This document shows, piece by piece, positions 7,059 through 26,404 of a DNA stretch of 64,000 nt. The notes under the pieces were generated by a model. It was not told where the DNA came from. It was given only the letters and a program-made list of their open reading frames with translations, and searched no databases. The first letter of the stretch is position 1. The number at the start of each line of letters is the position of its first letter. The position numbers and the translations under genes were made by a program. The DNA comes from Clostridiales bacterium. Lineage in GTDB: Bacteria; Bacillota; Clostridia; Christensenellales; CAG-314. The stretch is from positions 597,841 through 661,840 of the forward strand of contig JAFLVK010000001.1 in assembly GCA_022508345.1 (NCBI GenBank). The letters run 5' to 3'.

Positions 7059-7157
7059 TCGATTTTGCGTTTAGTGGCGTAAAACTGTTGACAAAATGGA
7101 TAAATTGAGTTATTATAGTCAAGCATTGAAGAGATGAGCTCAGTGCCAATTTAATAT

Positions 7158-7235
7158 CGCGGGGTAGAGCAGTCCGGTAGCTCATCGGGCTCATAACCCG
7201 AAGGTCGTGTGGTTCAAATCCCGCCCCCGCAACCA
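7158..7235 (+). tRNA. initiator tRNA-Met (CAU), CCA encoded
   Basis: Cloverleaf readable by eye. C1:A72 mismatch (cgcgggg/ccccgca) and three G-C pairs closing the anticodon stem (tcggg CTCATAA cccga), both initiator hallmarks. The 5' T-stem strand has 6 nt (gtgtgg) against 5 (cccgc). Confidence 0.85.
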
Positions 7236-7270: not shown

Positions 7271-7287
7271 GACTGCTCTACCCCGCG
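7271..7287 (-). repeat. perfect inverted copy of tRNA-fMet nt 1-17
   Basis: gactgctctaccccgcg is the reverse complement of 7158-7174 (17/17). Confidence 0.95.
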
Positions 7288-7299
7288 ATGCAGAAGTGT

Positions 7300-7510
7300 G
7301 AGCAGTCCGGTAGCTCCTCAGCCGAGGCACAACGTGCCGACCGCCACGAGCGAAGCGAGTATCGGGCTCCTCAGCCGAGCGCGAAGCGCGACCGCCACGG
7401 AGCGTAAGCGGAGTATAACCCGAAGGTCGTGTGGTGACGGAATTGATTGCGTAGCAAATCCAATTCCGTCGCAACATCGTTGCCTCTTGCAAATCCCGCC
7501 CCCGCAACCA
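7300..7510 (+). pseudogene. tRNA-fMet-derived mosaic (pseudo-tRNA or tRNA-like structured RNA) with three insertions
   Basis: 7300-7316, 7361-7369, 7415-7435 and 7491-7510 are identical to tRNA segments 7167-7183, 7184-7192, 7193-7213 and 7216-7235. Insertions lie at 7317-7360, 7370-7414 and 7436-7490. Confidence 0.8.
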
Positions 7511-7511
7511 A

Positions 7512-7556
7512 TTAATTGACCCCTCAACCTTAAATATGACTGAGGGGCTAATTAAT
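7512..7556 (-). terminator. hairpin downstream of the DUF262 gene (weak terminator / islet boundary)
   Basis: cccctca/tgagggg stem inside an imperfect 16-bp inverted repeat (attaattgacccctca / tgaggggctaattaat). There is no strong T-run. Confidence 0.4.
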
Positions 7557-7565
7557 ATTTACATT

Positions 7566-9665
7566 CTATTCCGAAAATACCTCTATAGAAAATTTATCTA
7601 ATAAATTAAACATTTCAGAGATTTGCCGTGCATAAAATCTTGCTCTTTCTGCACTCAAACAACCTTCTACAAATATTTGTGTATTATCTACTTCGCGCGC
7701 GTCAATTACTTTTTCTCTATCAAAGGTAATGATTGGATCTTTACCTATTGGGTTTCTGCTGGATGTAGCTTTATGTATTGTATGACTCTTTGCTATTTTT
7801 TTGAATAATACCTGATTACTCTTATTGAGTATTTTACAAACCTCTAATAAAAGATCACGCCAAGTATCCACAGGAATTGGTGTACCATCATATATAAGAT
7901 ATTTGATTGATGTACCTGTCACTGAAATATCTAAATCTGATAAAGCGTAAACTCCATTAAAGCTACCATTCTTGCTTTTTGATTGATATTTTCTCTCTCT
8001 TACTAGAGGTGCAGTAATAGCTATACATAATCTATCAGAAACATCGTCATTTCTTTCTTTTATCTGTAATTCTGTCCAATCAGAGTAACTCGAAGCTATT
8101 TCAGATGTAACCGCAAACTGAACGGATTTTAAGTTCTTAATTTTATCTGCCCAAGGTTTATTAGAATTTTTGGAATTATATCCTTGTGATATTGGAGCCA
8201 GATTTCCTATACAGTTAAGGTAATGTTCATAAATTCTATCGGCTTCTAGCTCTCCGCCCAGATTATTAATCCACCAGTCGGTTAGCGTTTGTGGCATCAA
8301 ATGCTCGGTAGTAACTTCATCAATTGGAACAGGAATATTTTTTGTTTCGTATTCTTCTAATTTTAACAAAGCAACGCGCGCATACGGTATGTCGATATGT
8401 TCCATAAGTGCTTGTTTAAATTCGGCATTATCTGGATAACGTCCAGAGGGATTAGCGCTGTTAGAAAGCTCGTAAAGAATTGAATCGTACTCTAAAGGTA
8501 TCTCTCCATTGTTTAGTAGTTCAAGTAAGTTTTGTATGACTGAACGTAAAGCCCCTCCACCACCAGATGGCGAAACAACACGATAGCGCAACATAAAATC
8601 TGATAAAAGATTTAATATTTTGTAGAGTTTACTTTTATCTTTGTCATACAATTTGTTGAACAAATACAAGTACAATGGATATAGGTCATTTGTCTTTAAA
8701 CAATTCAAGTATTTTATTGCATGGTTAAGTTTTTTTGTGGGGCAAGTTTCATTGATAAACCATTCATAATACTTTGATAAGTGATACATTTCCTTCAGAA
8801 TATCCAAATGTGCTGTTCCCGTAGAGTCAAAATGTTCACGGAATGTTTTATATATTTTGTCTCGAGGTATATCACTAAATAGATTTAATATTAGATAGTC
8901 TCTTGCGAACCGTGATATATTGTCATTTTGTATGGTTTGTTCTATCTTGAGCCAATAATCTGTATACAGTAAATCTTGTTCTGTAGATGTGTTAGCCAAT
9001 AATAAATAATTTCGTATCAAATCAGCAGGTTCTAATTGCTTGCCTGTCGAGTTTATCTTTTCAAAAACAGTTTGTACCTTGCTTAAGTCATTGTCAATTT
9101 GTAAATTTACGTCAACGATCTCAAACTTGGCTAATGTGTCGTACAAATCTTGAATTGAAACCTTTGATTCTATTATGCGAGTTTTAAAATACTCGAAATT
9201 AAGAATTGTGTTGTTCTTTTCGTTAGATGTTTGACCATTAATTATCCCAACAAAACAATCAGAATCATATGCTGTTTGCTTTAGTCTTATCCTGTACTTT
9301 TCGTTTTGAGTGCGATTAGTCAAAAAATCAGCAATAATATTCTGACGAATTTCATCGTTATCAGTTAAATCTCTTAATGCGCATAATAAAAGTAGTATGG
9401 TTGTTATTCTTTGTTGTCCATCAACAAGAATATATTCTTGAAAAGTTGCGCCGCTGTTTTGACCTAAGTAATAAACTATATTACCAAGATAATGTGATTT
9501 TTTGTTCTTATATGTTTGGAGTAAGTCATTAAATAACTCTTCACATTGTTGAGTATTCCACTCATAGTTCCTTTGAAAAGGTGGAATAATAAATACTTTG
9601 TTTCTGCCAGAAATAAAATCTAAAATATTAACATCGCTAGCTTTCATAAACGTCTCCTTTTTCAT
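7566..9665 (-). CDS. DUF262/DUF1524 (GmrSD-like, ParB-type NTPase + His-Me nuclease) protein with an extra C-terminal domain
   Basis: 699 aa. N-terminal FIIPPFQRNYEW and LVDGQQRITT (DUF262). Central EHLMPQ...IGNL...NSKNSN (DUF1524/HNH-like). About 170 aa of unassigned C-terminus. Clearly AT-richer than its neighbours. Confidence 0.75.
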   Translation of the reverse strand: MKKETFMKASDVNILDFISGRNKVFIIPPFQRNYEWNTQQCEELFNDLLQTYKNKKSHYLGNIVYYLGQNSGATFQEYILVDGQQRITTILLLLCALRDLTDNDEIRQNIIADFLTNRTQNEKYRIRLKQTAYDSDCFVGIINGQTSNEKNNTILNFEYFKTRIIESKVSIQDLYDTLAKFEIVDVNLQIDNDLSKVQTVFEKINSTGKQLEPADLIRNYLLLANTSTEQDLLYTDYWLKIEQTIQNDNISRFARDYLILNLFSDIPRDKIYKTFREHFDSTGTAHLDILKEMYHLSKYYEWFINETCPTKKLNHAIKYLNCLKTNDLYPLYLYLFNKLYDKDKSKLYKILNLLSDFMLRYRVVSPSGGGGALRSVIQNLLELLNNGEIPLEYDSILYELSNSANPSGRYPDNAEFKQALMEHIDIPYARVALLKLEEYETKNIPVPIDEVTTEHLMPQTLTDWWINNLGGELEADRIYEHYLNCIGNLAPISQGYNSKNSNKPWADKIKNLKSVQFAVTSEIASSYSDWTELQIKERNDDVSDRLCIAITAPLVRERKYQSKSKNGSFNGVYALSDLDISVTGTSIKYLIYDGTPIPVDTWRDLLLEVCKILNKSNQVLFKKIAKSHTIHKATSSRNPIGKDPIITFDREKVIDAREVDNTQIFVEGCLSAERARFYARQISEMFNLLDKFSIEVFSE

Positions 9666-9982
9666 TGGTTAATTGATTTTATTATATCACAAACTTACCA
9701 GAAGGTCTACAAGTATATTTTCTTTAATGGCTAAACAAAGTAGTGTTTAATAATGTATATATATAATATTATTTTGAAGATGAAGACTAATTATTTTTAT
9801 CCTAGGCTGCTTATTATATAGAAACTGTACCATACCATTGAAATAGTGTGGCGCGCTGACTGCATCAGATTTTACAGGCTGTTCTTTCTTTCAAATTTTG
9901 TCTATTTCAGGATTTATGTCCGTGAGTATTATGTAATTTAGTTCAATTAGTGGTATAATAGAATAAGTAACGGAGGTTAATT

Positions 9983-12042: not shown

Positions 12043-12079
12043 ACCGACGTTTTAGCTACGAACTAAATGTCGGTTTTTG
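12043..12079 (+). promoter_or_regulatory. terminator-like hairpin in the nrdD 5' leader (possible attenuator)
   Basis: About 12-bp stem accgacgtttt-ag/ctaaatgtcggt with one wobble and one bulge, followed by TTTTT. Lies about 30 nt upstream of the nrdD ATG. Confidence 0.45.
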
Positions 12080-12109
12080 CCACCTTTTTGGGGAATACGG
12101 AGGAGAACT

Positions 12110-14473
12110 ATGTATCAAGTAAGAAAGAGAAACGGTCAAATTATCGATTTTAAGCTTTCTAAAATCAGCCAAGCAATCACGGCTGCTTTTGAAGGAGAAG
12201 AAAAGCCCTACAGCTCTGACGTTATCGACATGCTGTCGCTAAAGGTTACGGCAGACTTCATGGACAAGGTCAACAACGGCATCGTATCCGTTGAGGACAT
12301 TCAGGACAGTGTGGAGACGGTGCTTATTCAAGCCGGCTACGCCGACATTGCCAAGGCGTACATACTGTACCGCAAGACGCATGAAAACGCTCGTAAGGCA
12401 GGCGAGACCTTCCTTGATTACAAATCCGTAGTGGACAACTATCTAAAGATTGCCGACTGGCGCGTAAAGGAAAACAGTACCGTTACCTATTCGGTGGGAG
12501 GCTTGATTCTCAGCAACAGTGGCGCAATCACAGCTAACTACTGGCTCAGCGAAGTGTACGACGAGGAAATTGCCAATGCTCACCGCAGCGGTGCAATTCA
12601 CCTGCACGACCTCAGCATGCTTTCCGGATATTGCGCAGGCTGGTCGTTAAAGCAGCTCATCCAAGAGGGTCTTGGCGGTGTGGACAGCAAGATTACCTCC
12701 GCCCCTGCAAAGCACCTTGCAACGCTGTGCAACCAGATGGTAAACTTCATCGGTATCATGGCAAACGAATGGGCAGGCGCTCAGGCGTTCAGCTCCTTTG
12801 ATACATATCTTGCACCCTTTGTAAAGGCAGACAACCTCAGCTACGACGAAACAAAGAAGTGCATCGAATCTTTCATATACGGCGTAAATATCCCCGGACG
12901 TTGGGGTACACAGGCACCATTCAGTAACATCACGCTGGACTGGACTGTACCCGATGACCTTGCCGAACTCAACTGTATTGTAGGCGGTAAGGAAATGCCC
13001 TTCAAGTACAAGGACTGCAAACGCGAAATGGACATGGTAAACAAGGCGTTTATCGAAACCATGATTGAGGGCGACTACAACGGACGCGGCTTCCAATACC
13101 CCATCCCCACCTATTCCATCACCAAAGATTTCGACTGGAGCGAAACGGAAAACAACAAGCTGCTGTTTGAAATGACGGCTAAGTACGGTGCGCCGTATTT
13201 TTCCAACTACATCAACAGCGACATGCAACCCAGCGACGTTCGTAGTATGTGCTGCCGTTTGCGTCTTGACTTGCGCGAACTGCGCAAAAAGTCCGGCGGT
13301 TTCTTCGGAAGCGGTGAAAACACAGGTTCTGTGGGCGTTGTAACAATCAACATGCCCCGCATTGCATATCTAAGCAAGGACGAGACGGAATTTTTCAAGC
13401 GTCTGGACAAGATGATGGACATCTCCGCCCGCTCACTCAAGATCAAGCGTACAACTGTGACCAAGCTTATGGAAGCAGGCTTGTATCCGTACACAAAACG
13501 CTACCTTGGCACATTTGACAGCCATTTCTCTACAATCGGCTTGGTGGGCATGAACGAAGCTTGCCTCAATGCTAAATGGCTTGCTTGCAACCTTGTGGAC
13601 AAGCGCGCACAAGAATTCACCAAAAAGGTGTTGAACCACATGCGTGAGCGCCTAAGCGACTACCAGGAAAAGTACGGCGACTTGTACAACCTGGAAGCAA
13701 CCCCTGCCGAAAGCACATCCTACCGCTTGGCAAAGCACGATGCAAAGCTGTACCCGGATATGATTTTCGCAAGCAAAAAGGGCGAAACTCCCTACTACAC
13801 AAACAGCTCGCACCTGCCCGTAAGCTACACGGCAGACGCATTCGACGCGTTGGATATTCAGGACGAATTGCAAACGCTGTACACGTCAGGTACGGTATTC
13901 CACACATTCCTCGGTGAACGCTTGCCCGATTGGAAGTCGGCAATGAAGCTTGTGCGCACAATTGCTGAGAACTACCGTCTTCCCTACTACACAATGTCGC
14001 CCACCTATTCCGTATGCTCCGAACACGGCTACCTTGTAGGCGAACAGTACGAGTGTCCGCACTGCCACAAGAAGACGGAAGTGTACTCGCGTATCACAGG
14101 CTACTACCGTCCCGTACAAAACTGGAACGACGGCAAGGCTCAGGAATGGAAGGAACGCAGAACCTACAAGCCCGACCAAAGCACGTTGAAGAAATGCCTG
14201 TTTACCCACGAAGAAGAACAGGTTAAAGAGCAAGTAAGCATTGCAAAGCCCATTTTGTTCGTTCAGGACAACTGCCCTAACTGCAAGATGGCAGAGCTGA
14301 TGCTGGGTAAAGCCGGCGTTGACATCGAAGAGGTAAACGCAATGCAAAATGCCGAGTTATCCAAGAAATTTGCAGTAAAACTCACTCCCACGTTAGTAGT
14401 TCAAGAGGGCGACAGCTACAAGGTGTACGAAAACGCAAGTAACGTACGCAAGTATATTGAGAGTGTTAAATAG
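12110..14473 (+). CDS. nrdD: anaerobic (class III) ribonucleoside-triphosphate reductase with a fused C-terminal thioredoxin-fold CxxC domain
   Basis: 787 aa from the ATG after ggaggag. N-terminal ATP-cone, GAIHLHDL, CCRLRLD, Zn site CSEHG..CPHC, glycyl-radical motif SRITGYY. An extra tail carries CPNC (Cys codon at 14273) in an ILFVQDNCPNCK...TPTLVV context. Confidence 0.9.
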   Translation: MYQVRKRNGQIIDFKLSKISQAITAAFEGEEKPYSSDVIDMLSLKVTADFMDKVNNGIVSVEDIQDSVETVLIQAGYADIAKAYILYRKTHENARKAGETFLDYKSVVDNYLKIADWRVKENSTVTYSVGGLILSNSGAITANYWLSEVYDEEIANAHRSGAIHLHDLSMLSGYCAGWSLKQLIQEGLGGVDSKITSAPAKHLATLCNQMVNFIGIMANEWAGAQAFSSFDTYLAPFVKADNLSYDETKKCIESFIYGVNIPGRWGTQAPFSNITLDWTVPDDLAELNCIVGGKEMPFKYKDCKREMDMVNKAFIETMIEGDYNGRGFQYPIPTYSITKDFDWSETENNKLLFEMTAKYGAPYFSNYINSDMQPSDVRSMCCRLRLDLRELRKKSGGFFGSGENTGSVGVVTINMPRIAYLSKDETEFFKRLDKMMDISARSLKIKRTTVTKLMEAGLYPYTKRYLGTFDSHFSTIGLVGMNEACLNAKWLACNLVDKRAQEFTKKVLNHMRERLSDYQEKYGDLYNLEATPAESTSYRLAKHDAKLYPDMIFASKKGETPYYTNSSHLPVSYTADAFDALDIQDELQTLYTSGTVFHTFLGERLPDWKSAMKLVRTIAENYRLPYYTMSPTYSVCSEHGYLVGEQYECPHCHKKTEVYSRITGYYRPVQNWNDGKAQEWKERRTYKPDQSTLKKCLFTHEEEQVKEQVSIAKPILFVQDNCPNCKMAELMLGKAGVDIEEVNAMQNAELSKKFAVKLTPTLVVQEGDSYKVYENASNVRKYIESVK

Positions 14474-14481
14474 GTATTAAG

Positions 14482-15387
14482 ATGTATGATATCGTAGTTA
14501 TTGGCGGTGGACCTGCGGGTCTAACCGCCTCGCTATATGCGGCGCGTGCCGGCAAGAGCGTAATGCTACTTGAAGCAAACGCTTTCGGCGGGCAGATAGC
14601 CACAGCGCCAAGAGTGGAAAATTACCCATCTGTTGCAGAAACGACAGGCGCACAGCTAGCCGACAAAATGTTTGAGCAAGCAGTGTCGCACGGCGTGGAA
14701 TTTGACATGGGCACTGCTAACATAGAAAAGACTGATTTCGGTTTTAGGGTTACTACCGAATATTCAACCTACGACTGCCTGTCGGTGGTAATATCCACGG
14801 GTGTATCCCACAAAAAGCTGGGGCTAGCAAGTGAAGAAAAGCTAGCCGGTAACGGTGTGTGCTACTGTGCCGTATGCGACGGAGCATTTTACGCTAACAA
14901 GCCCGTATGTGTGGTGGGTGACGGCAACAGTGCAGCTCAGTATGCGCTGTACCTTGCGGAAATTTGCAGTGAGGTTCACCTGCTCACCATGTTCGACAAG
15001 CTGTTTTGCGACAGGGAACTGACAGACAGAATAGTTGCCAATGACAAAATCAACTGGGTACAAAATGTTACCGTTAGCGAGATTTTGGGCGAAAGCAATG
15101 TGGAGGGCGTAGTGTACCGTGATAGCGACGGTGCAATCACCTACCTTGATTTGGAGGCGGTTTTCGTTGCGATAGGGCAGGTTCCGCACAATACACAGTT
15201 TGCCCCTCTTGTGCAACTGGACGAGAAAGGCTACATTGTTGCAGGCGAAGACTGCAAAACCGACTGTGAGGGAATATTTGTTGCGGGCGACTGTCGCACC
15301 AAGAAGGTACGCCAATGCACAACAGCCGTCGGCGACGGTGCGGTAGCGGGTTTTTCCGCCGCAATGTATGTAGACAAGTTAAGTTGA
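14482..15387 (+). CDS. thioredoxin-reductase-like flavoprotein lacking the NADPH HRRxxxR signature
   Basis: 301 aa. GGGPAG FAD motif and CAVCDG redox disulfide. The second nucleotide site is VGDGNSA, followed by VHLLTMFDKLFCD where E. coli TrxB has VHLIHRRDGFRAE. Confidence 0.8.
   Translation: MYDIVVIGGGPAGLTASLYAARAGKSVMLLEANAFGGQIATAPRVENYPSVAETTGAQLADKMFEQAVSHGVEFDMGTANIEKTDFGFRVTTEYSTYDCLSVVISTGVSHKKLGLASEEKLAGNGVCYCAVCDGAFYANKPVCVVGDGNSAAQYALYLAEICSEVHLLTMFDKLFCDRELTDRIVANDKINWVQNVTVSEILGESNVEGVVYRDSDGAITYLDLEAVFVAIGQVPHNTQFAPLVQLDEKGYIVAGEDCKTDCEGIFVAGDCRTKKVRQCTTAVGDGAVAGFSAAMYVDKLS
15329..15384 (+). repeat. direct repeat DR1a (3' end of trxB-like gene)
   Basis: 56 bp, 55/56 identical to 17019-17074. 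Confidence 0.95.
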
Positions 15388-15411
15388 ACTAACACAAGCC
15401 AGTTCGTCGCA

Positions 15412-15433
15412 GAGAGTACAAAAACTACCGTCG
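15412..15433 (+). repeat. terminal inverted repeat, left (TIR-L) of the AbiH cassette
   Basis: gagagtacaaaaactaccgtcg. Its reverse complement matches 16993-17020 (14-bp perfect core gtttttgtactctc plus cgacggt, with an indel). Confidence 0.75.
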
Positions 15434-15510
15434 TGAGACTGGCGCAAAAGTAAATAAGGAATTATTAAGGACCTTGTGCAAACAGGGCCCTTTTTCTATA
15501 TTTAATACTA

Positions 15511-15554
15511 AATATGGGCCTGCGCGGGGTTGTCCGGCCTTGCGGACTGGGTGC
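15511..15554 (+). repeat. direct repeat DR2a
   Basis: aatatgggc[ctgcgcgggg]ttgtccggccttgcggactgggtgc. It matches 16958-16991 except for the bracketed 10-nt insertion and contains the hairpin gtccg/cggac. Confidence 0.85.
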
Positions 15555-15575
15555 TCAAAGTTGTTACCTTGAATA

Positions 15576-15604
15576 TTGACAATGGTTTTAATAGCCATTA
15601 TAAT
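15576..15604 (+). promoter_or_regulatory. consensus promoter of the abiH-like gene
   Basis: TTGACA, 17-nt spacer, TATAAT. Confidence 0.65.
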
Positions 15605-15641
15605 ATTGAGGGATTATACACAAAGGAGATTGGGTATACGA

Positions 15642-16889
15642 ATGACATCACAACTTCTTATTTTAGGAAATGGTTTTGACCTTCAATGTGGATTGAAGTC
15701 CAGTTACAAAGACTTTTTTCGTCAAGCAATACTTTATGCAATTACTGAAAGATTTGGTCTTGCACAAATGAAGTACGGAGTTGCAGGTTTTTGGGAAAAT
15801 TTATTGTATGAATACTATAAGAAATATGATAATGATGATTATAAATGGTGTGACATCGAAAGTATAATTAAAAATACACTTTGGGACATGGGGCTTGGGA
15901 AAAAAAATACAGACGGTATTGTGAAAAATATATTGGACTGTGTAAACAACAAATGTTTTCCAAACTATGACTCTACAAAAGATTCAATAGAGCTATTTCT
16001 GTCAAAATACTGCTTCAATTTCTTTATCAAACTTTCTCCAAGGCACAAAGTATGCAGCGACCAAGAAAAAGTACGATTACTTATAGAACGCCTATTGTTA
16101 GAGTTAAATAATTTTGAAAGACGGTTCTGTAAATATATTAAGAATAATATTGTAAACCAAAAAAACGGAGAAGAAATAAATGAAGGATATATTATCAATG
16201 CTGTTAATTTGCTTGCAAAACTTACGGGGTTTTCTAACAATGTATTTAAAAGTATTAATAACATAATTAGAGAAGAAAGAAGATACTACGAAGAAGAACA
16301 TCAGCGTGCGACAGTTGCTGGTTTCAAGAACATAAACGTATTGAAGGAAGAATTTACCAAAGTTAAAAATATACATATCTTAAGCTTTAATTACACGGCG
16401 CTTTTTGATATATTAGGCGTTCCAAGTCCATGGGTATATAGTAATGTGCACGGTAAACTATGCAATGAATTGTGTTCTGAAAATTGTCTTTCTTCAAGTA
16501 TTATATTTGGAATTGACGACAAGTTAATACAGTCACAAAGTGAATACAATGACTTGCGAGTATTTAGTAAAACCTATAGAAAGATGTTTAATACAAGTTC
16601 ACCCGAAAGCGTATTGCCAAACAACGATGAAACAGTAGACATTAAGTTTTACGGGCACTCGCTTAGTGAAGCAGATTACTCCTATTTTCAGAGTATTTTT
16701 GACTATTACAATTTATATGGAAATAGTAGCGTAAGTCTATATTTCTATTATTCGGAGAATTATGACCCCACCGATGCGGTTTATCGGCTGATAAATGAAT
16801 ATGGTAAAACCTTGACAAACAAAGACCAAGGCAAAAATTTGATGCACAAATTGTTATTAGAAAATAGAATTAATATACAAAAAATATAA
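15642..16889 (+). CDS. AbiH-family abortive-infection protein
   Basis: 415 aa from the ATG. The N-terminus LLILGNGFDLQCGLKSSYKDFF is the characteristic AbiH start. AT-rich relative to its flanks. Confidence 0.75.
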   Translation: MTSQLLILGNGFDLQCGLKSSYKDFFRQAILYAITERFGLAQMKYGVAGFWENLLYEYYKKYDNDDYKWCDIESIIKNTLWDMGLGKKNTDGIVKNILDCVNNKCFPNYDSTKDSIELFLSKYCFNFFIKLSPRHKVCSDQEKVRLLIERLLLELNNFERRFCKYIKNNIVNQKNGEEINEGYIINAVNLLAKLTGFSNNVFKSINNIIREERRYYEEEHQRATVAGFKNINVLKEEFTKVKNIHILSFNYTALFDILGVPSPWVYSNVHGKLCNELCSENCLSSSIIFGIDDKLIQSQSEYNDLRVFSKTYRKMFNTSSPESVLPNNDETVDIKFYGHSLSEADYSYFQSIFDYYNLYGNSSVSLYFYYSENYDPTDAVYRLINEYGKTLTNKDQGKNLMHKLLLENRINIQKI

Positions 16890-16957
16890 TTTAAACAGCG
16901 TACTTTTAATATAAAATGCGGTATAATACGCTTACAAGGTACAGTTAACTATGTAGG

Positions 16958-16991
16958 AATATGGGCTTGTCCGGCCTTGCGGACTGGGTGC
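16958..16991 (+). repeat. direct repeat DR2b
   Basis: Matches DR2a without the 10-nt insertion. Confidence 0.85.
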
Positions 16992-16992
16992 C

Positions 16993-17020
16993 CGACGGTG
17001 CCAACGGTTTTTGTACTCTC
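16993..17020 (+). repeat. terminal inverted repeat, right (TIR-R)
   Basis: cgacggtgccaacggtttttgtactctc, the inverted match to TIR-L. It abuts DR1b. Confidence 0.75.
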
Positions 17021-17074
17021 GGCGACGGTGCGGTAGCGGGCTTTTCCGCCGCAATGTATGTAGACAAGTTAAGT
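17019..17074 (+). repeat. direct repeat DR1b (displaced copy of the trxB 3' end)
   Basis: 55/56 identical to 15329-15384. It would encode ..GDGAVAGFSAAMYVDKLSHSK*. Confidence 0.95.
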
Positions 17075-17100
17075 CACAGTAAGTGAAGCTAAATGTTATC

Positions 17101-17135
17101 AAAAAAAGAGAGTACAACGCATGTACTCTCTTTTT
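17101..17135. terminator. bidirectional intrinsic terminator
   Basis: A-run, stem agagagtaca/tgtactctct, T-run. It sits between the displaced trxB end and the convergent dehydrogenase gene. Confidence 0.8.
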
Positions 17136-17149
17136 CAATATTTATCGAT

Positions 17150-18163
17150 TTAGTTTATTTTTACAATTTTTGATTTCAGTCCCGTATCAAAGGGGTTTAT
17201 CTTCGACATTTCCTTGTCCAGGTTGTCGAAGCTGATTGTTGCGCCTATCAATGGGTCGATATTGACGGTATCCGTTACCAACAGATTGATTGCCGACGAG
17301 TAGTTGCCTGCGCCATTGTAAACGCCGAAGATGTTGAGGTGCTTGCGACATATTTGCGCTACCGACAGCTTGCTGTCCTTGTTGCTGTAGCCTGCAAGGC
17401 AAATGTTGGCATTGAATGTTACCACACTGTAAACGTCTTTCATGTTGATGTCGCTGTTGGAAAGCAGTATCAGCTCCTTGCATTTTCTGCCACCTGTTAC
17501 AGCAAGTATTTCCTCTTCTACGTCCGTTTCGTCGGGGTTGAAGCAGTACATTACTCCCAATTCTCTTGCCATATCAAGCAGTTCAACGCGACTACTGATG
17601 AGTACGGGCACCGCTTGATAGTAAGCTATCAATTGAGCCAATATCAAGGCTTGCTTGGTTTCGCCGAATATTGCAATGTGGCGACCTTTTTCCAAATTCA
17701 GCGCGTCGCAAATGTTGAGACAAAATGCAACCATGGGTACAAATAACGCCTTTTCATTGCGAAGTTGATCGGGCAAGGTGTGTAGTTGAGAGTAGGGCAA
17801 ATCAATAAAGTTGCAAAGCAGCCCATTGCAGTTGTAACCAAGCTCCTTCAAATTGGAGCAATTGGTGTAATTGCCACTTTTGCACTCATCGCAAATCTCG
17901 CATGGAACGCACGGTTCAATTACCACCCTGTCCATTTTGCGCAGGATTGGATTGTCGCCGTGAACAACCGACACAACACCCACAGCATATCGCCCTATGA
18001 TAAAGGGATATTTGCGCTTGGCTGCACCGGTGTAAATTTCGATATCGGAGTTGTTTAACAAAACCTCTTCAATCTTGACCTTTATTAAATTTTCAGTTAT
18101 CTCGGTAGGTTGGGATTCCTGCAAGGTAAGTTTGCCGGGCTCCTCAAGTATCCAAGCTTTCAT
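17150..18163 (-). CDS. medium-chain (zinc-type) alcohol/polyol dehydrogenase family protein
   Basis: 337 aa. Structural-zinc Cys cluster CVPCEICDECKSGNYTNC and an MDR-like layout. The catalytic GHE motif is non-canonical (GRYAVG). Confidence 0.6.
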   Translation of the reverse strand: MKAWILEEPGKLTLQESQPTEITENLIKVKIEEVLLNNSDIEIYTGAAKRKYPFIIGRYAVGVVSVVHGDNPILRKMDRVVIEPCVPCEICDECKSGNYTNCSNLKELGYNCNGLLCNFIDLPYSQLHTLPDQLRNEKALFVPMVAFCLNICDALNLEKGRHIAIFGETKQALILAQLIAYYQAVPVLISSRVELLDMARELGVMYCFNPDETDVEEEILAVTGGRKCKELILLSNSDINMKDVYSVVTFNANICLAGYSNKDSKLSVAQICRKHLNIFGVYNGAGNYSSAINLLVTDTVNIDPLIGATISFDNLDKEMSKINPFDTGLKSKIVKIN

Positions 18164-26322: not shown

Positions 26323-26399
26323 GCGCCCTTAGCTCAATTGGATAGAGCGTTGGTCTACGGAACCAAAGGTTAGGGATTCGAGCTCCTTAGGGCGCGCCA
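26323..26399 (+). tRNA. tRNA-Arg (ACG), CCA encoded
   Basis: GCGCCCT..GCTC AATTGGATA GAGC..TTGGT CTACGGA ACCAA..AGGGA TTCGAGC TCCTT AGGGCGC GCCA. Confidence 0.9.
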
Positions 26400-26404
26400 C
26401 AAAA

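Follow-up and report, generated by a model that had tools for sequence, protein, structure and literature searches.

An AbiH-family gene in a strain-variable insertion bounded by copies of the trxB 3' end in an uncultured Clostridiales bacterium

We analyzed a 64,000-nt stretch of contig JAFLVK010000001.1 of a Clostridiales bacterium (the window; all coordinates are window positions unless another locus is named), in which an AbiH-family gene lies between two copies of a 56-bp direct repeat, DR1, formed by the 3' end of a trxB-like gene. Our results showed that this locus carries an insertion/empty-site polymorphism with exact DR1 boundaries, that no recombinase is encoded locally, and that one end of the insertion is conserved in a diverged member at the same locus. 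With a confidence somewhat short of even, we interpret the 1,690 bp between the DR1 copies as a non-autonomous integrative cassette flanked by attachment (att) sites, which resembles the cis-mobilizable elements (CIMEs) and would be moved by a recombinase acting in trans.

The trxB-like gene (14482-15387, plus strand) encodes a FAD/NAD(P) disulphide oxidoreductase (Pfam Pyr_redox_2, 2e-41) of 301 amino acids (aa) that ends in ..VDKLS*. Its last 18 functional codons are supplied by the left, attL-like copy of DR1 (15329-15384, plus strand), and its stop codon, TGA (15385-15387, plus strand), comes from the element and lies immediately 3' of DR1. The right copy (17019-17074), followed by the displaced native tail ..HSK and its stop, forms the attR-like side (17019-17086, plus strand). 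The two copies match at 55 of 56 positions, with T15351 versus C17041 as the sole difference. That the right copy encodes ..VDKLSHSK* ahead of an intact terminator, as the original prediction had stated, is read directly in the sequence. This resident bidirectional terminator (17103-17135) has a 14-bp stem and separates trxB from a convergent Zn-dependent alcohol-dehydrogenase-like gene (ADH; 17150-18163, minus strand), the conserved right neighbor of the site. The filled allele shortens TrxB by 3 aa relative to its native length of 304 aa, and none of 119 close homologues naturally ends in ..KLS. An extension of DR1 to 71 nt in the repeat-finding output was rejected, the part beyond 56 nt not being significant (spacer alignment p=0.57). 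The left shell was also considered as a diverged copy of the host trxB-downstream region and rejected, the spacers aligning no better than shuffles (p=0.57) and a natural TrxB terminus in ..KLS being absent among the homologues.

An empty site, with trxB ending in ..LSHSK and followed by the terminator, had been predicted for related genomes, and exactly this arrangement was found. The 90%-identity cluster of TrxB contains one other member among ~15 billion sequences, P0002, a 304-aa protein ending in ..VDKLSHSK. Its contig, L083, belongs to a sister assembly of the same ENA series and shares 98.2% identity with the window across 20 kb. The alignment of L083 runs to 15384 and resumes at 17019, so that L083 has DR1 only once, followed by the native tail, the terminator known from the window, and ADH; this single DR1 has C, as in the right copy of the filled allele. 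The right side is collinear with L083 from 10848, and the first difference there is the length of an A-run at ~17108. The 1,690 bp enclosed by the two DR1 copies is therefore an insertion that varies between strains. Further occurrences of the filled allele are L001/L096, at 100% identity to the window, and a 1,717-nt Logan unitig, both ends of which lie inside DR1, where a de Bruijn graph would break. A duplication of the own trxB tail was found in none of 80 GTDB species representatives and 2 further close relatives, in many of which trxB is directly followed by ADH. Since these relatives lack the duplication, the insertion is the derived state.

The non-coding shell of the element is organized in two further repeat layers. 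Just inside DR1 lie inverted repeats (IRs). The left arm (IR-L, 15405-15434) starts 20 nt inside DR1-L and reads CGTCGCAGAGAGTACAAAAAC-T-ACCGTCG, that is, CGTCGC-A-GAGAGTACAAAAAC-T-ACCGTCG, with an inverted CGACGG at 15428. The right arm (IR-R, 16993-17027) has the reverse complement CGTCGCCGAGAGTACAAAAAC-CGTTGGC-ACCGTCG, and its last 9 nt overlap DR1-R. The arms share a perfect 14-mer (15412-15425 and 17007-17020) and match at 20 of 21 positions over 15405-15425 and 17007-17027; read by eye, the repeat is longer than first noted, 27/28 nt with a 6-nt indel. The second direct repeat, DR2, brackets the gene, with a left copy at 15511-15554 (plus strand, GC 0.68) carrying a 10-nt insert, CTGCGCGGGG, and a right copy at 16958-16991 (plus strand). 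Both copies contain AATATGGGC and a 25-nt exact core, and the small hairpin of DR2 is GTCCG-gccttg-CGGAC. A 14-nt inverted or 25-nt direct match arose in 0 of 2000 shuffles of both non-coding ends; the three predicted repeat layers were thus confirmed at their positions and exceed chance. No further copy of DR2 or of the IR 14-mer occurs elsewhere in the 64 kb. Moreover, the motif CGACGG is found 3 times in the 243-nt non-coding shell versus 0.16 expected (P=6e-4).

The element also brings a terminator-like hairpin with a T-run (15472-15497, plus strand), 85 nt past the TGA at the junction, which probably now ends the trxB transcript, and then the promoter of its cargo gene. An in-frame TGA at the junction, followed by a terminator and a cargo promoter, is an organization typical of elements that target gene 3' ends. 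In total, the non-coding DNA outside the cargo amounts to ~290 bp, the AbiH gene is the only open reading frame (ORF) with family support, and no credible Rfam family was detected in the element.

Two short contigs, each showing one end only, carry related cassettes. In L101, from another species, an AbiH gene (63% aa identity; coding DNA 68% identical to the window cargo) lies beside the 3' end of ADH. About 70 nt past its stop codon, L101 carries a 45-nt block 93% identical to window positions 16984-17028. In the window, this right-end block (plus strand) reads CTGGGTGCCCGACGGTGCCAACGGTTTTTGTACTCTCGGCGACGG, with a 29-nt core of CCCGACGGTGCCAACGGTTTTTGTACTCT, and takes in the last part of DR2-R, IR-R and a pair of CGACGG motifs spaced by 30 nt; the L101 block likewise spans the DR2-R end, CGACGGTGCCAACG, IR-R and GCGACGG, with the same 30-nt spacing of CGACGG. 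The block stands out as an island in a sliding comparison (0.88 identity, versus 0.1-0.45 for other non-coding DNA), and its identity equals that of the best-conserved coding windows. To its right, L101 continues with a short tail and a terminator that both differ from those of the window, and then with the C-terminal end of a minus-strand ADH homologue (..LRSKIVKIN*). The L101 cassette thus occupies, in its own species, the trxB|ADH position known from the window. Its tail may read ..DGICRRQKNSK*, with a putative junction at VDG codons. In L100 (AbiH 60% aa identity), the left terminator, a stretch similar to DR2-L (~75% identical, in the same place and with a counterpart of the 10-nt insert) and the promoter are shared with the window; therefore, the non-coding left shell travels with the AbiH gene. 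The shell is thus inherited together with the gene at this locus, and its right end is under strong constraint; the conservation of that end in L101 argues that the cassette ends are functional and makes a real cassette family likely.

A small ATG-initiated ORF spans the conserved block in both loci (window 16961-17086, 41 aa; L101 1436-1522, 28 aa). Both ORFs share M(G)LSG..WVPDGANGFCTL, and 2 of the 3 block substitutions are synonymous in that frame. The block may conceivably encode a small peptide, on the basis of three substitutions in an ambiguous alignment.

The conservation in L101 bears directly on whether the insertion was a one-off event of illegitimate or homology-facilitated recombination, in which foreign DNA was anchored by trxB homology and joined at a 2-nt microhomology (TC), or was inserted at a staggered break, with DR1, the IRs and DR2 as by-products of template switching. 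The join ..GTACTC|TCGG.. does share TC microhomology with ..GCCG|TCGG.., the full layout occurs at one locus only, no recombinase was found, the DR1-L sequence is of the same species, and an 11-mer is common to the IR arms and the local terminator, as copying of local sequence during repair would predict. However, another species retains the right-end block, IR-R included, at 93% identity in a cassette whose gene is only 68% identical at the DNA level, which weakens this explanation considerably because side products of one repair event should be neither shared between loci nor conserved. The left shell shared with L100 and the tidy arrangement of in-frame stop, terminator and promoter also speak against it, and we consider it quite improbable.

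The 11-mer in question, AGAGAGTACAA, occurs four times in the 64 kb (at most 1 mismatch), in both IR arms (15411-15421 and 17011-17021) and in both arms of the 17103-17135 terminator, which the empty allele has as well. In an alternative structure, IR-R could pair with the left terminator arm. Because L101 keeps IR-R and has an unrelated terminator, the likeness is either chance (~1e-3, judged post hoc), a trace of the origin of the element in the host lineage, or a host-specific functional pairing.

The main rival explanation is an old resident islet. After a single entry into the trxB|ADH gap of an ancestor, the segment would have been passed on vertically and lost repeatedly by RecA-mediated deletion between the DR1 copies, with the 45-nt block regulating the AbiH transcript as a 3' untranslated region (UTR) or anti-terminator element or as the start of a small peptide. 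The divergence of AbiH between the window and L101 (63% aa) is indeed similar to that of the flanking ADH tail (~60% over 40 aa in our own alignment; relatives with ADH at 57-60% have trxB at 67-70%), the strains carrying the empty and filled alleles are 1.8% apart, and the trxB|ADH gap is a generally variable spot with unrelated genes in other species. The possible pairing of IR-R with the resident terminator via the common 11-mer and the small ORF over the block, with its synonymous substitutions, would suit a regulatory role. Nevertheless, an unselected right copy of DR1 would not have stayed at 55/56 while AbiH diverged by 37%, and absence from more than 80 related species would require many independent, precise losses. 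The cargo GC content of 0.31 shows no amelioration toward the host value, the peptide evidence comes down to three substitutions in an ambiguous alignment, and the likeness between block and terminator is missing in L101, whose terminator differs. We therefore regard a resident islet as unlikely, if still worth serious consideration.

Looking beyond the trxB locus, the other close AbiH homologues are found in regions similar to integrative and conjugative elements (ICEs) with serine recombinases and PcfJ/K, beside DNA methylases, or beside Abi_C. The shell is absent around close homologues in L084, L085/86, L097 and L087-95, and no flanking repeats comparable to those of the window surround the homologues in L084-L086 and L097. 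Therefore, the shell is tied to the trxB locus or to mobility, and not to AbiH expression. A separate repeat was noticed upstream of the AbiH homologue P0017, which lies beside a DNA methylase: a 196-nt unit in 1-3 tandem copies with internal hairpins (L085 5450-5900, L086 2640-3310), which may act as a structured RNA or as a repeat with a regulatory role.

The cargo itself (15642-16889, plus strand) corresponds well to the AT-rich AbiH gene with a consensus promoter that had been predicted. The 415-aa protein matches PF14253 with 74.3 bits (cut-off 30.9) over profile positions 1-249 of 260 and residues 5-356, and the PADLOC AbiH model matches only its N-terminal 80 residues. The gene has a GC content of 0.31, versus ~0.5 in trxB and the flanks and about 0.46-0.51 in the host, and its sigma-70-type promoter (15576-15604, plus strand) agrees with the consensus TTGACA-17-TATAAT at 12 of 12 positions and is conserved in L100. 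A homologue search gave 1523 matches, the nearest relative being 65% identical, and the protein belongs to a distinct gut-Clostridia subfamily. Plasmid genes annotated as 'AbiH family protein' in Enterococcus, Listeria and Lactiplantibacillus match its C-terminal 40% at 40-44% identity, and no AbiH relative was found in viral contigs or phage records. The cargo shares the PF14253 match and an association with mobile DNA with lactococcal and plasmid AbiH proteins. Going by its family annotation, it presumably confers phage defence of the abortive-infection type. For lactococcal AbiH, a Sir2-like fold and an NAD-depleting mechanism have been proposed (PMC13064643). A confident AlphaFold2 model of the cargo protein built from 38 homologues (predicted local distance difference test 80.5, predicted template modeling score 0.77) gave a best Foldseek match of E=0.45 against the PDB, with sirtuins absent from the top 50, and a profile search of PDB sequences gave no match. 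The Sir2-like NAD-depleting mechanism is thus not confirmed for the cargo protein by this modeling.

If the insertion is an att-flanked cassette, as we favor, we infer a circular intermediate, site-specific catalysis, a defined crossover position and a protein-binding role for the IRs, DR2 and CGACGG. The circle would consist of a 1.4-kb AT-rich cargo, comprising the promoter, the AbiH defence gene and its 3' UTR, and a ~290-bp GC-richer attachment region in the order DR2-R, CGACGG, IR-R, the 56-nt trxB-tail copy, TGA, IR-L, CGACGG, terminator and DR2-L, with the junction ..GTTTTTGTACTC|TCGGCGACGG..AAGT|TGAACTAAC... Such a region would resemble a complex attP with flanking arm sites, and the single-stranded junction would fold into a long imperfect hairpin (z=-5.6), which we count in favor of the cassette. 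The circle would have been inserted by reciprocal (Campbell-type) recombination between its trxB-tail copy and the chromosomal trxB tail, which is favored because it is the simplest account of an exact insertion bounded by direct repeats; a full account must also cover the copy of the trxB 3' end on the element, the stop codon and terminator that the element supplies, and the conserved ends. The crossover probably took place at the left edge of DR1, at the palindrome CCGTCG-G-CGACGG that covers the GDG codons of trxB in the target (15326-15338); the DR1 left edge (15329) falls within its left half, and the palindrome is also present in the empty allele (L083 10845/10852). The T/C difference within DR1 cannot place the crossover, because the density of strain single-nucleotide polymorphisms (1 per 57 nt) predicts about one there. 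The observed layout would follow from this insertion: trxB retains a working end that is shorter by 3 aa and draws its stop codon and terminator from the element, the native tail and resident terminator are pushed rightward, and AbiH is read from its own promoter. Since the element contains no recombinase, the enzyme must act in trans. The inner DR2 pair had been suggested as a site of cargo exchange. This suggestion found no support, as there is no alternative cargo between DR2 copies and DR2 was found nowhere else; DR2 fits better as part of one ~290-bp composite att region.

Several observations weigh against the att-flanked cassette and are gathered here. No recombinase was detected in the element, in the ~24 kb for which Pfam calls had been precomputed, or in further large ORFs of the window, a scan that did not extend to three ORFs at 57-64 kb, so that the cassette is recombinase-less, as predicted; an integrase with an attP resembling DR1 was not found either. 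Exact-pattern scans of IMG/VR for the DR2 core, the IR/DR1 junction, both DR1 halves and the conserved block returned nothing, DR2 and the 3' half of DR1 are absent from the JGI metagenomes, and blastn of the whole element against phage and plasmid collections gave no match. DR1 lacks the 9-13-nt core-type inverted repeat typical of tyrosine recombinases, a peptide search with the 41-aa junction ORF matched only itself, and the full layout is known from one instance only. Right of its conserved block, L101 has no full trxB tail, so its target position or state differs. The filled and empty strains differ by 1.8%, and the polymorphism is therefore not evidence of recent mobility. Finally, sister species differ at several synonymous sites in the DR1 region and DR1-L matches the host copy at 55/56, so the copy in the element is of same-species origin, as in-situ duplication would also yield. 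Among the remaining negatives, no other copy of the ends was found in the 64-kb window or in ~100 fetched loci, and no alternative cargo was found inside the same shell. Taken together, the proposal of a minimal, trans-mobilized defence cassette is partly supported, by the insertion, its empty site and the conserved end in L101; its trans-mobilization part is not supported.

Among known systems, CIMEs, defined as elements that have kept attL/attR and lost the genes for integration and transfer (PMC5704250), are the closest. Like CIMEs, the cassette has attL/attR direct repeats containing the 3' end of a housekeeping gene, has no integrase or transfer genes, is present or absent depending on the strain, and supplies the replaced gene end. 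It differs from them in being 1.7 kb long with one gene and no decayed genes of ICEs or IMEs (integrative and mobilizable elements), in its trxB-like target, and in ends that carry 28-nt inverted repeats and a second direct-repeat pair. CIMEs related to ICESt1/ICESt3 sit at the fda 3' end in Streptococcus thermophilus, and we know of no cognate ICE for the AbiH cassette. The element also contains no remnant genes that would mark decay from an ICE or IME. A wider likeness exists to ICEs, IMEs and prophages with tyrosine recombinases at gene or tRNA 3' ends, in which a long identity segment likewise covers the gene 3' end, the gene is rebuilt with an altered tail and the displaced native end lies at the far junction; unlike these, the cassette has neither an integrase gene nor recognizable core-type inverted repeats in DR1.

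This resemblance raises the question of whether the cassette is a CIME by true descent, that is, an integrase-bearing ICE, IME or prophage in the trxB tail from which an internal deletion left only AbiH. DR1 as an attL/attR-like repeat with the target gene 3' end, together with the absence of integration and transfer genes, agrees with the CIME definition, and AbiH homologues often reside on ICE-like elements that also encode serine recombinases and PcfJ/PcfK; an association with ICEs is described for lactococcal AbiH (PMC13064643). Yet the repeats enclose one gene and ~290 bp without gene remnants or pseudogenes, L101 and L100 seem equally compact around the gene, and no integrase-bearing element was found at trxB in more than 80 relatives (82 related loci, flanks 6-10 kb). 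We consider such a descent improbable; the element may have been born minimal or may be a remnant of a larger one.

Mobile insertion cassettes (MICs), integrative mobile elements exploiting Xer (IMEXs) and integron cassettes likewise carry no recombinase of their own and are mobilized in trans. As CIMEs and these three all lack a recombinase, the layout is not without precedent, and the original view that no described class matches it was too strong, given that CIMEs fit the definition (PMC5704250). That the AbiH cassette belongs to one of the other three, being an integron cassette with an attC, an IMEX moved by XerCD at dif, or an insertion-sequence-derived MIC or miniature inverted-repeat transposable element (MITE) moved by a DDE transposase, is very improbable. 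In favor of such a system, the hypothetical circular junction can be folded into a long imperfect hairpin (z=-5.6) with a 67-nt loop, an attC-like geometry, and 28-nt inverted repeats lie near both ends. Each candidate, however, fails a defining feature, and the reading is largely refuted.

Integron cassettes share with the AbiH cassette a single promoter-proximal gene, one structured, hairpin-capable site and mobilization in trans in place of an own recombinase. The AbiH cassette differs in its own strong promoter, its non-attC core motifs, and its insertion into a gene 3' end with a 56-bp duplication and not at attI. The outermost IR bases, GTTTTTG/CAAAAAC, have the wrong order and composition for R''/R' (RYYYAAC...GTTRRRY), no intI occurs among the scanned genes of the 64-kb window, and no cassette array is present. 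Against an IMEX, all 4-kb bins of the window have a positive GC skew that never changes sign, so the window is not a terminus/dif region, and DR1 and the hypothetical attP lack a dif-like 11-6-11 palindrome (9-13-nt arms, at most 2 mismatches, 0-9-nt spacer). MICs and cargo-bearing MITEs also place a passenger gene between inverted repeats without a transposase and move in trans. The IRs of the AbiH cassette, in contrast, are off the insertion boundaries, the adjoining CAGTT and GTGCG are not duplicated, there is no short target-site duplication, and no second copy occurs in the 64 kb or in ~100 loci. On our preferred reading, the AbiH cassette is an att-flanked, non-autonomous element carrying a defence gene and belongs functionally with CIMEs.

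The host lineage consists of uncultured Clostridia, kin to Christensenellales and 'Fimimonas' metagenome-assembled genomes, and the best species-level match of trxB is only 86% identical in aa sequence. The local gene order is nrdD, the trxB-like gene and the convergent ADH gene. NrdD (12077-14473) carries a C-terminal glutaredoxin/thioredoxin-like domain, and the TrxB-like reductase gene follows directly, a pairing that suggests a dedicated reductant relay for the class III ribonucleotide reductase in the host lineage. In related species, unrelated genes occupy the trxB|ADH or trxB-downstream gap without duplication of the trxB tail. These encode a 905-aa Flg_new-repeat surface protein (L003 3858-6575), a 469-aa glycosidase-like protein (L004 6958-8367), a 1008-aa UvrD/NERD-like helicase with zinc ribbons (L034 7185-10211) and an alpha-amylase (L099 7522-9066).

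Two other spots in the window also differ between the strains. After a tRNA-Met gene (7157-7234) come an inverted copy of the tRNA 5' end (7271-7289) and then a second copy of the tRNA in four collinear fragments (7300-7319, 7361-7378, 7415-7435 and 7490-7515) separated by GC-rich inserts of 36-54 nt. This split array is present in both strains (L083 4210-4600), Rfam detects only the intact tRNA, and the array could be a remnant of att sites or a tRNA-derived structure of unknown kind. Past the fragments, the strains differ (window 7503-9949 versus L083 4558-5468). The window has a GmrSD-type restriction gene (7566-9665, minus strand, GC ~0.39), and L083 has a gene for a 221-aa membrane protein between 31-nt direct repeats, each a copy of the tRNA-Met terminator. 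The spot lies 6 kb away from the AbiH cassette and is a second recombinase-less, repeat-bracketed variable site. The third difference between the strains is small and adjoins a tRNA-Arg gene, where L083 (20234-20349) has ~116 extra nt and a short duplicated/inverted segment relative to window positions 26323-26403.

Defence genes cluster in mobile islands. To our knowledge, the entry and exit of single genes at core-genome hotspots without a recombinase of their own are poorly documented. The trxB locus offers a pair of filled and empty alleles, exact junctions and a short conserved end shared with a diverged relative, and the question is therefore experimentally tractable. Beyond the CIME-like cassette that we favor, a more specific and rather doubtful extension is that it belongs to a family of minimal single-gene defence cassettes, each with a ~290-bp hairpin-forming att region (CGACGG, 28-nt IRs and DR2 arms), which a dedicated recombinase in trans would target to trxB ends coding for GDG/VDG. 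If this is true, the family would be a chromosomal analogue of integron cassettes that targets gene 3' ends, and the AbiH cassette would be its first recognized member. If no trans-acting recombinase exists, the locus would be a strain-variable islet of the ordinary sort, its conserved non-coding block left without an explanation. If one does exist, it would define a previously undescribed way for uncultured gut Clostridia to exchange defence genes, and possibly also a targeting module of compact size.

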